A stretch of DNA of 64,000 bases from Mustelus asterias. Taxonomy: Eukaryota. The stretch covers positions 1 to 64,000 of the forward strand of contig NW_027590242.1 of NCBI RefSeq assembly GCF_964213995.1, in the 5' to 3' direction. Every line of letters begins with the position of its first letter. Position 1 is the first letter of the stretch. Positions 50,006-53,299 of this stretch are shown piece by piece. The translations under genes and the position numbers were made by a program. The notes beneath the pieces were generated by a model that saw only the letters and a program-made list of their open reading frames with translations, was not told where the DNA came from and ran no database searches.

Positions 50006-50028
50006 TGTTTCAATTTGCAAATGCAGAT

Positions 50029-50331
50029 TGTTAAAAAATACTTTTTCAATTCTATCAAATCAAGTCCAATTCATGGTCTCAACAAGTTGAGAAATTTCCG
50101 ATCCAAGCTGACAAGACAAGGCCTTCACTCCTGTCTTGCGCCTGACCTACATGAGCCAAGCTAATTGGAGTAGGTGCAGACTCACCTCCTCCAAGGCCTT
50201 TGCATCTTAGCCAAAAGGCCGATATGCCACTTTTAAAAATTGCTTCAAATGAAGCTTAAATGTAACCTAATGACCAAGCGCAGCATCCGATCCATACGAC
50301 ACTTGATTTTAGCCAAAGGGCCGAGAAGCCT
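50029..50331 (-). mobile_element. U2 snRNA-headed short retroposed element, copy 1
   Basis: Head at 50329-50294 is a near match to the U2 5' end (GCTTCTCGGCCCTTTGGCTAAAATCAAGTGTCGTAT). Non-U2 body, flanked by a 15-bp imperfect direct repeat. Confidence 0.78.
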
Positions 50332-50346
50332 TTTGCAAGTACAGAT

Positions 50347-50690
50347 TTTTTTTTGATTTTTTTAACATACTTTTCCAATTCAATCAAATCAAGTCCAATT
50401 CAGAGTCTCAACAAGTTGAGACATTTCCGATCCAGGCTGGCAAGACAGGGCAAGCGACCATTTACCCTGTCCTGGGCCCGATCTACATGAGCCAAGCTGA
50501 TTGGAGGAGGGAAAGCAATTCCTCCTCCAAGACTTCATCTCTTTTGCATCTGAGCCAAAAGGCCGAGATACCGCTTTTAAAAATTGCTTCATATGAAACA
50601 TATGAAGCTTCAATGTAACCTAATGACCTCAACCAAGTGCAGCATCCAATCCATACTACACTTGATCTTAGCCAAAAGGCCGAGAAGCCT
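50347..50690 (-). mobile_element. U2 snRNA-headed short retroposed element, copy 2
   Basis: Head at 50688-50653 reads GCTTCTCGGCCTTTTGGCTAAGATCAAGTGTAGTAT (U2 5' end). A-rich tail, flanked by TTTGCAAGTACAGAT on both sides. Confidence 0.82.
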
Positions 50691-53299
50691 TTTGCAAGTA
50701 CAGATGATTGATATGCTGAAGGGCATTTTGTTTAAATTTGTTACAAAGCACGAATCGAGAAGGCAATTTACCAGCCAGTTCAACGACTATCACAATGCAC
50801 ATTGCTGAACGTCTGGCACCAGATGCCTGCAACGTCAATGCTTTTCATATTTTCGCTACTCTTTAACTCCTCCGTTGAAAGAGGGAAGCAGTTGGTGTCG
50901 TACAAGAATAAATTGACTGGAGTTCGGCAAGTGCGTGCGTGCGTAAGTGCGCGCGCGTGTGTGTGTGTCTGCGTTGTGGTAGAAAAGTCTCCTGTCTTCG
51001 ATCAGAGTGCTGCCAATTCTAAGGTGTAACGCACTCTGGCCTCTCGCTCCGACTTCTTGATTAAATTGGGACAGGTGAGTGACTGAATGCCACATGTAGG
51101 TGGACCCCTTGCCCACTATGGCTTCCCTGCCTTTCAGCGCTGTGTATTCATGAGCAATTGTCCTCTGGGGCTGATGCAATGACGCCAGGAGAGTCATTCG
51201 CTGCATCATCTGCAATGTGACTGCGGTGGAATTTGCTGAAATTTCCCTGTGTTTAGATTACCACTTTTTGCGAATTTAAAATGAAATGCCCTTCAGCAAA
51301 CCCAACATCGCTGCAAATAGCAGCTGGATGCTCTGTTGTAGGATCTCTGGTCGAATGGTGAGCATCTGAATCCAGCGAACCGAATTTAAATTTAGGCGGA
51401 TCCTTGCTCTTCTTTGCCATTGTTGAGGATTGATTTGTTGAAGGACCTTTTGTTTAAATTCCTCACAAAGCAGGCATTGGGGGGACAATTTGTCAGCCAG
51501 TTCAACTTCTATTACACTGCACATTGCTGAGCCACTGGCGACAGGTGCCTGCATCAACAATGTTTTTTTAAAAATCTTTCACTACTCGTTAACTCCTCTG
51601 TTGAAAGAAAAGAACATTTGGTGTTACACACCAACAACCATTCGACTGGAGACTGGCAATTATTGAGCAAGCGTATGTGTGTATCTGTGTGTGTGTGCGT
51701 GTGTTTGTGTGTGTGTGCCTGTGTTTATGTGTGTGTGCGCGTGTGTGCGTGTGTGCGTGTGCGCGTGTGTGTATGTCTTTTGGGAGAAAGGCCGAATGTC
51801 AAAGGTCAGAGTGCTGTCGTTTCCATGGTGTGACTCTTCGCAATCCGGACTCTCGCCATCCCACCTCTTGTTTAAATTAGGACAGATGAGTGAGTGAATG
51901 GCACCCCGAGGTGGACCCCCTCCAAAATATATATTGAATTAGGAACATATTTTGAAATGACTAATCCTCATTTTGTATTATTTCATGTCAAACAGGGTGA
52001 CGCATCGTTGTATCTTATTATTAATTAAAACCTTAACCCTTTAACTACGTAAGGAGGCAAAGTTCAGTTAAAGAAAACTAATCCAAATGGAATTAGAAAA
52101 AAACTACACTGGCGTTACTGCAAATCCCACCTCAAAGCAGAAAATATTGGAAACACTTTCTAGGTCAAGCAGCGTCTATGGAAATGGAAACAGAGTGAAT
52201 GTCACTGACGTCGATCCAAACTGGAAGACATTAGAGATTTAATGGTTTACGAGCAAATGCAGAGCGAAGAAAAATACAGGGAGAGAACTCTATTTAGGAC
52301 CTTGTGATAGGATGTAAGGCTGGAGTGATTGAATGACATTGCAGATGATTGTTGTTCCCACAGACACAATCTCCCGGATCCTCGTTCAAATCTCACGCAA
52401 AATGAGAAGAAAACTTCCCGCTGAATTAAGCACAAACTCTTCGAATGCCGGGGAAGTAGAGATAGTTTTAACTCAGAAAGCAGAAACCGTGAGATTAATA
52501 GGGCGGCAGGGTGGCACGCTGGTTCGCACTGCTTCATCACAGCGACACTGACCCGTGTTCGATTCCCGGCTTGACTCACTGCCCATGTGGAGTTTGCACG
52601 TTCTCCCCGTGAATGCGTGGGTTTCCTCCCACAGTCTGAAAGACGTGCTGGTTAGGTGCACTGACCCGAAAAGGCACTGGAGTGTGGCGACTGGGGAATT
52701 TCACAGTAAATTGTTGTTACTCAAACCAGGTGGGGAAACAGCGTCTCAGCATGCCCGAAGTCAAACTGTCGCCCCATTTTCAGTTGTTTTAATCAGCTCA
52801 CCTCTCAATTTTCTAATCTAACGAGAGAACAGTCTCATCCCACTGCATCACTCCTCCCAGAACAACTGCCTCATTATAGGATTAAATGCAGTGAACCTTT
52901 GTTCAACATCGATAGCGAGAGAATAGAGGGAGCAAAGAGCAAAAGGGGGAACAGTGATCGATGCACAGACAGAGAGACTGAAAGAGTGAAAGAGTCTGAG
53001 ACAGGTTTTCAGCAACAGAGAGGGACAGAGAGTGAGGCAGACACTCACAACCCAATATACAAACAACAACTCTCTGAACCCACAAGCATGGGATGCTCTG
53101 ATTGGGTGAATAAGAATTAAGTGAATGTCCGCAAAAATTGTCACTTTTTGAAAATGTCTAGATTCTCTGTGAGTGTGCTGTGCTAACAGAAGCCTTGCAG
53201 TCAGTGCTCGGGTTATCAAGTCCGACCCCATGTGAACCAATTCCAACATATCACGGGAAATAAACAAACAGAATCCGCTCCTTGTCCATTTCGGAACAA

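Follow-up and report, generated by a model that had tools for sequence, protein, structure and literature searches.

What are the two short units headed by U2 small nuclear RNA (snRNA) that lie in tandem just behind a tRNA-Gln gene of the shark Mustelus asterias, and how would such units be transcribed and copied? They occupy the minus strand of the window analysed here, which is the stretch of 64,000 nucleotides (nt) at positions 1 to 64,000 of contig NW_027590242.1 (RefSeq assembly GCF_964213995.1). The original prediction took them for a possibly undescribed structured non-coding RNA family or non-autonomous retroposon, inserted in a sequence-specific manner by a long interspersed element (LINE) that targets U2 genes. 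Judged from the genome sequence, we consider it probable that the tandem pair stems from a U2-headed retroposon family, which would be transcribed from invaded U2 genes and copied by a Keno-like LINE of the Tx1 type.

A dispersed family with U2 heads

A DNA search of the genome returned 2,382 candidates on many contigs, 40 of which were scored and had 95-100% identity, and two 19-base motifs from the 3' part of the element had 2,558 and 5,327 exact genome matches, compared to 0 for the reversed controls. The element is approximately 300-335 nt long, ends in an A-rich tail and contains no reading frames. The two units thus almost certainly belong to a true family of dispersed, non-coding, U2-headed retroposons with at least 5,327 copies, in line with the non-autonomous short interspersed element (SINE) proposed originally. 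Our main sample followed the list of the first (2,558-match) motif along contig C1 in genome order and comprised 83 loci with 89 copies. Most of these copies (69/89) start within U2 nt 1-12 and 13 align from nt 1, while 16 have an upstream tandem neighbour and three carry 5' inversions; by eye, no common repeat was seen in the flanks of these 89 copies. For the other variant of the second motif 19 more loci were fetched, and the copies printed share the same head-body design. A set of 131 near-full copies, which includes copies picked by BLAST and is skewed toward subfamily 5, fell into 10 groups of at least three, two pairs and 25 singletons, and the groups were 96-98% identical to their own consensus, with constant stems and variable loops.

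Unit 1, the upstream member of the pair, scored 56.4 bits with the Rfam U2 model (RF00004), above the gathering cut-off of 46, leaving the stem II region unmatched. Element copies scored 46.6-57.8 bits, compared to 175-190 bits for true U2 genes, and no other snRNA or ribozyme family was found among the Rfam matches up to E = 10. Hence, the element resembles a U2 gene or pseudogene in its identical first 39 nt and in passing the cut-off, but differs in its total score, in the unmatched stem II and in a branch-point region that is predicted to be paired. Being above the cut-off but otherwise different in sequence, such copies would be mis-annotated as U2. Nor does the element have the make-up of a classical polymerase III SINE, as the B-box pattern of polymerase III promoters was absent and the consensus of subfamily 5 has T runs at nt 14, 108 and 131.

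Target-site duplications of 10-23 bp were recognised in 51 copies by an automatic, uncurated call on 104 loci, as expected for the retroposon proposed. The only consensus among these 51 duplications was A at -3, G or T at -2, T or C at -1 and A at +1 of the insertion point, which is the core of the U2 site. However, the claim of sequence-specific insertion had to be abandoned: on average 5.9 of 18 bases of the dispersed targets matched the U2 site (best 10), compared to 4.7-5.3 for the controls, indicating that the family is not sequence-specific, and only 10 tail junctions continue into U2 nt 38-49 as compared to 5,327 copies, so that more than 99% of the family is dispersed.

Copies in U2 genes and a Keno-like LINE

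The genome contains two types of U2 genes, type A in a 1,833-bp unit (contig C24) and type B in a unit of about 450 bp with a different spacer (contig C21), the type-B U2 scoring 175.5 bits with the Rfam model. Copies inside real U2 genes, which the original prediction had suggested looking for, were found: five lie behind full U2 upstream DNA, one in a type-A gene (C24) and four in type-B genes (C21 at 28.064 Mb, C1 at 80.335 Mb, C8 at 80.288 Mb, and C14 at 62.230 Mb), and they are fused at U2 nt 39 without a 5' duplication. A further copy on C14 has just 29 bases of U2 spacer upstream. The type-B in-gene copies belong to subfamilies 5, 9, and 7. Conversely, the element tail is followed by U2 nt 38-49 at 10 places, nine of which had a BLAST match to the element, against a chance expectation of about 0.01 (hand estimate). 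Locus L112 consists of an element, U2 nt 38-191 and the U2 3' flank; it lies away from the arrays and is enclosed by one target duplication. Similarly, L115, L192, and L195 are U2 or array pieces away from the arrays, each within one duplication, which is as expected for retroposed read-through RNA. Taken at the sequence level, these junctions make it rather probable that the element is transcribed from U2 promoters. A shared 5' pentamer was also considered as the mark of a third source locus, but it was found at three places only and the idea was rejected.

The U2 arrays also hold a Tx1-type LINE, in which Pfam recognises ZCCHC3-type RNA-binding domains and a CCHC knuckle in open reading frame (ORF) 1, and APE, reverse transcriptase (RT) and zf-RVT domains in ORF2. 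The tail of this Keno-like LINE is followed by U2 from nt 38, which is the base used by the U2-headed SINE. Its 3' 22-mer had 602 matches, of which 22 were at the U2 site (followed by U2 nt 38-49), indicating that the LINE, too, is mostly dispersed and does not show strict U2 specificity. Four of 30 LINE ends abut a SINE head directly, compared to an expected 1 in approximately 10,000 per end (hand estimate). U2 heads are also present on the LINE itself, and in a type-B U2 gene a truncated LINE copy (L233) shows the same head-merged junction. In total, 39 A-tailed junctions were present at the U2 site, and the 22 loci inspected contained two Keno-like families, the U2-headed SINE and two other short elements. 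The shared U2 base and the shared off-target sites agree with the U2-targeting LINE that had been proposed, and very probably make the Keno-like LINE the partner of the U2-headed SINE. The concern that the body of the SINE might simply be a Keno 3' untranslated region (UTR) was also addressed, and the body matched no part of the LINE; an origin from U2 spacers was likewise rejected for want of a match.

Several other structures were observed at these U2 loci. The type-B genes at G000:C21:28.045-28.082 Mb are heavily occupied by the LINE, and four intact genes were seen in 60 kb. At L095 (2125-2331 and 3974-4180), type-A U2 genes contain nt 18-37 in short repeats at the site targeted by the LINE, which are perhaps abortive insertions. 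An 8,035-bp unit composed of an intact U2 gene, a Keno-like LINE and the 3' part of U2 is repeated in about 15 tandem copies at G000:C24:44.815-44.935 Mb (L091); ORF2 is interrupted in this unit, and the invaded unit has itself spread through the U2 array. The second Keno-like family (L094, L245, L246, L249, and L250; C24) has a different 3' UTR and is joined to U2 3' sequence with one shared change. L235 (G000:C8:131974457) and L239 (G000:C17:61749613), the two other short elements with an A tail that use this U2 base, are possible sister families: one has an internal U2-like stretch with an Sm site, whereas the tail of the other resembles that of the U2-headed SINE, and the latter element lies together with U2 nt 38-94 inside one duplication.

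The window locus, its insertion order and the predicted fold

Both units and their head, tail and body elements were found in the window largely as first described. The units share 79% identity over 352 alignment columns, both end in an A-rich tail, and their heads match U2 nt 4-39 of a U2 gene of the same genome at 36/36 (unit 1) and 33/36 (unit 2) positions. Each body holds a second U2 stem-I copy (at about 50548-50568 in unit 1 and 50204-50228 in unit 2), and a 15-bp repeat at 50014, 50332, and 50691 flanks and separates the units. The features are as follows.

49934-50005, plus strand: tRNA-Gln(TTG) gene, with the insertion site 8 bp past its 3' end and the units in opposite orientation
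50014-50028, minus strand: target-site copy 3, ancestral form, the same as in L204
50029-50331, minus strand: unit 2 (303 bp), the older SINE copy, 89.9% identical to its nearest subfamily consensus (group 31)
50332-50346, minus strand: target-site copy 2, identical to copy 1
50347-50690, minus strand: unit 1 (344 bp), the younger SINE copy, 98.8% identical to the subfamily 5 consensus
50347-50401, minus strand: conserved 3' end and A-rich tail of unit 1
50405-50422, minus strand: hairpin GTCTCAA-CTTG-TTGAGAC
50429-50483, minus strand: long hairpin GATC..GACAGG/CCTGTC..GATC with variable loop
50501-50530, minus strand: hairpin TTGGAGGAGG/CCTCCTCCAA, the loop varying by subfamily
50546-50571, minus strand: second copy of U2 stem I, spanning U2 nt 7-27 in the family and lengthened into a larger hairpin
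50574-50585, minus strand: single-stranded U-run aligned at the Sm-site position of the U2 model, lacking the G that normally follows the U-run of an Sm site
50586-50608, minus strand: hairpin GCTTCA...TGAAGC, its length differing among subfamilies
50617-50645, minus strand: antisense arm, a reverse-complement version of the head altered by A>G and C>T; it is predicted to mask the head by pairing with it
50653-50688, minus strand: U2 head (U2 nt 4-39, comprising stem I and the branch-point recognition region)
50691-50705, minus strand: target-site copy 1

The base of the long GATC..GACAGG hairpin resembles that of the TTGGAGGAGG/CCTCCTCCAA hairpin, suggesting an internal duplication.

The paralogous tRNA-Gln flanks near 30865 and 32005, which had been read as empty sites, match the window flank at only about 72%; nevertheless, empty tRNA-Gln sites do exist: the flank has 23 paralogues in the genome, of which 18 are empty and five filled. 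In the empty paralogue L204 the site has the form of target-site copy 3 (ATCTGCATTT in element sense), which is like U2 nt 38-47 at 7 of 10 bases, while copies 1 and 2 share two changes relative to copy 3. Since L204 equals copy 3, unit 2 was inserted first, and the U2-like ATCTGTACTT is a derived form that served as target in the second insertion only; the U2-like target put forward originally thus holds for the second insertion but not for the first. On these sequences, unit 2 would have entered the site, its upstream duplicate then mutated, and unit 1 was inserted there, duplicating the mutated form, in agreement with the two serial insertions first proposed and with the tandem order described below. 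Unit 2 is decayed and carries small deletions, and copies of subfamily 5, to which unit 1 belongs, are also present within type-B U2 genes (L193 and L192).

In nine other filled loci the flanks are 94-99.7% identical to the window locus, indicating that they are duplicates of one locus. By this flank identity, the tRNA-Gln site of the window represents a single insertion locus that was amplified later along with its tRNA cluster. A special link to tRNA genes was therefore rejected: the filled flanks derive from one locus, and 81 of the 83 loci sampled in genome order had no tRNA call, the remaining two having weak ones. At L026 (G000:C270:90050) a single chimeric unit lies between repeat 1 and repeat 3, which probably arose by crossing-over between units 1 and 2 of the window locus. 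The tRNA cluster itself (window 21772-63548) received 12 ARAGORN calls (Gln, Glu, Tyr with introns, Asn, Leu, and Val); several of these genes are decayed, and the block is duplicated over many contigs. The window also contains open frames at 549-2436 (plus strand) and 40402-42800, which by eye resemble retroelement pol and LINE fragments.

Stacking of units was analysed at 32 tandem junctions, four of which join the same subfamily. All 27 independent junctions between subfamilies (27/27) fit one order without contradiction, namely 8/9, then 5/1, then 16/15/30, then 23/31, then 24, where subfamilies were assigned by the best BLAST hit, some below 90%. Subfamilies 5 and 9, both found in type-B U2 genes, are at the upstream end of this order. 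With random orientation an acyclic order arose in 5 of 20,000 trials, which favours units having been added one after another on one side over a single step of template jumping among mixed RNAs, and the duplications in the window identify the upstream side as the younger one. An occupied site may be used again when new cDNA pairs with the resident head.

The fold predicted for unit 1 contains all four stems named in the original prediction and is far more stable than expected (z = -7.07, 0 of 100 shuffles as good), while unit 2 reached z = -2.79. Although the sense strand folds better than the antisense strand in all 131 near-full copies, G+U content alone favours sense, and the fairer comparison is that between z = -7.07 and z = -3.79 for the opposite strand of unit 1. 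The body opens with a segment that is the reverse complement of U2 nt 11-40. In this arm, 8 of 18 A/C sites are changed by A>G or C>T, which keeps G-U pairing, and 0 of 12 G/T sites carry a pair-breaking change (p = 0.010); including the next edge base, this becomes 1 of 13 G/T sites (p = 0.045). The branch-point region was predicted to be paired above 0.8 in 88 of the 113 copies with the anchor motif, whereas it is mostly unpaired in U2 itself, and in one subfamily the apical sequence is replaced and the hairpin kept. Over 73 stem pairs, variants common to at least five copies keep pairing in 18 of 22 cases compared to 21 of 110 singletons (p = 3e-8), with thresholds chosen by the analyst and variants that are not independent. 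Swapping arms in the variable loops made a small difference of 0.4-0.6 kcal/mol. According to these models, selection on the fold in source copies is likely, and we lean towards a functional masking of the U2 head by the antisense arm.

Proposed life cycle, alternatives and known systems

We propose that RNA polymerase II would start at U2 +1 of an invaded gene and produce an RNA of head, body and tail, sometimes reading through into the remaining U2. The antisense arm would then fold over the head and mask the branch-point helix, such that the RNA does not act as a rogue U2. The endonuclease and reverse transcriptase of the LINE would insert the element RNA: a rare insertion at U2 nt 37/38 would merge the head with the first 37 bases of the gene and thereby create a new source gene, while most insertions would take place at loose A(G/T)(T/C)-A sites and give promoter-less copies. 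Later copies would re-use the upstream duplicate of an occupied site, so that arrays grow in the 5' direction, as in the window. In its widest form, the proposal describes a promoter-free parasite of U2 genes that rebuilds its source by re-insertion at U2 nt 37/38, disarms the branch-point helix by an arm under RNA-level selection, may enter the small nuclear ribonucleoprotein pathway via its Sm-like site, and dates its subfamilies by polarised stacking; this combination we put forward tentatively, as slightly less than an even chance.

Several observations weigh against the proposed cycle. A later insertion of an element into an existing U2 pseudogene could mimic some of the read-through copies, L112 included. 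The promoter-adjacent in-gene copies have 93-97.5% identity to the nearest consensus, which makes each of them a candidate master at best, and the one in the type-A gene is deleted. Five candidate sources are few for at least 10 subfamilies, and that the U2 upstream DNA acts as an active promoter is an assumption. On the side of the partner, the SINE body shares nothing with the LINE ends beyond U2 pieces, the tails agree loosely, and frames were interrupted in all four array loci checked for the LINE (longest 515-912 amino acids). Identity to consensus showed no age polarity between upstream and downstream tandem members (15 vs 17). As for the fold, pair-keeping at the level of consensus sequences was not significant (9/12 vs 156/291, p = 0.24), and the covariation between copies that had been suggested as a check did not, when scored as two-sided changes, exceed the shuffle control (153 of 500 shuffles as high).

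It could be speculated that the element has an internal promoter of its own, of the polymerase II or snRNA type (octamer, CCAAT box and a motif like the U2 proximal element), in which case dispersed or upstream tandem copies would be the sources and the in-gene copies by-products of LINE targeting. The presence of ATGCAAAT in 107 of 131 copies, a 10-base word common to the element and the -62 region of type-A U2 genes, the commonness of tandem copies and the many sources that many subfamilies need all speak for it; yet the three motifs all fall within predicted stems, variation in the shared word preserves pairing, and the full octamer is absent from both U2 upstream regions. Moreover, the identified 3' extensions are U2-derived, and a shared 5' extension, sought in one case, occurred at three places only and revealed no further source locus, so we regard an internal promoter as unlikely. 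Transcription could also proceed as proposed while copying is mainly done by another L1/Tx1 family or by Utopia, which has the same 3' U2 flank in the part of PMC4640811 that describes it. The lack of body sequence common to the SINE and the Keno-like LINE, as well as the second Keno-like family, would fit this; however, the shared off-target sites are with the Keno-like family, and no Utopia-like element was present at the 22 U2-site loci inspected of 39, in a search pattern that required an A tail. We consider a different copying LINE quite unlikely.

Because strong folding, hairpins with an Sm-like U-run between them, the U2 model score of unit 1, which exceeds the gathering cut-off, and pair-keeping variation in source copies would all suit a functional RNA, the source might instead be a host non-coding RNA gene for a variant snRNA-like particle, with the dispersed copies as its processed pseudogenes. 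This is very unlikely in our judgement, given that no clean stand-alone gene or array was found, that all in-gene copies inspected have an A tail and interrupt U2, that the branch-point region is masked or mutated between subfamilies, and that the subfamilies appear successive, as selfish elements do. That U2 RNA and truncated LINE 3' ends were joined independently each time, without any family, is largely refuted and hardly credible: such chimeras do exist in the genome (L233) and the LINE itself bears U2 heads, but the body matches no LINE part and is complementary to the head in every subfamily, and most copies share one head-body structure. A U2-headed family transcribed from invaded U2 genes and copied by the Keno-like LINE therefore remains our preferred explanation.

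The closest known counterparts are SINEU-1, -2, and -3, found only in crocodilians and targeting Mariner-N4 according to the sections of Kojima (2015; PMC4494074) that deal with them; the relevant part of a 2017 review gives the same range (PMC5381603), and passages of PMC7245038 add nothing on it. As described there (PMC4494074), SINEU shares with the window family a U2-derived head, repeated U2 pieces, a length below 500 bp and an A tail. Both have oligo-T runs, which speak against polymerase III, and tandem copies arranged around a target duplication, and for both there is a Tx1 partner, a candidate one in the window family, that itself has snRNA heads. The corresponding features were found here, namely a U2 head (nt 1-39) and a short, non-coding and A-tailed element with duplications that forms a true family; as candidate partner, a Tx1-type LINE shares the U2 site and off-target sites with the SINE. 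By analogy, the window family probably works like SINEU, the likeness being one of design features. In contrast to SINEU, it has copies in real U2 genes at the Keno site and a predicted head-masking antisense arm; it is also the larger family, with at least 5,327 copies, and a young one, its copies having 96-98% identity to their subfamily consensus. A literature search, which did not cover subscription journals, Repbase Reports or Dfam, listed no comparable element with a U2 head except those of crocodilians.

Keno, a U2-specific APE-type Tx1 element, uses the same U2 insertion base as our element in the descriptions given in PMC4494074 and PMC4640811, and its site and APE-type endonuclease as outlined in the latter match those of the partner LINE, which has an APE-type ORF2 with RT, a CCHC ORF1 and U2 from nt 38/39 after its 3' end. 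Unlike Keno, the partner is relaxed, with only 22 of 602 ends at the U2 site, and the SINE has neither reading frames nor a Keno-derived body. A parallel is also offered by the short internally deleted elements (SIDEs) R2 SIDE and R2/R1 SIDE, which, in the passages of PMC3414825 concerned, are likewise non-autonomous, reside in a host RNA gene at the site of their partner and rely on the host transcript. However, SIDEs are deletion derivatives of their own LINE, cut by a ribozyme and inserted at the ribosomal DNA site of that LINE (same source), whereas the window SINE combines the 5' end of the host RNA with an unrelated body, and more than 99% of its copies are dispersed.

The discussion of SINEU (PMC4494074) left the transcription of snRNA-headed SINEs as an open question, since neither U1 nor U2 has an internal promoter and the families in crocodilians are for the most part old. 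The family described here is young and abundant and has both copies in U2 genes and a candidate partner at the same base, which makes this question directly testable. If true, masking by the arm would illustrate the way in which a selfish RNA keeps from disturbing splicing. Finally, thousands of copies may pass the Rfam U2 cut-off and thus inflate the number of U2 genes counted in annotations.

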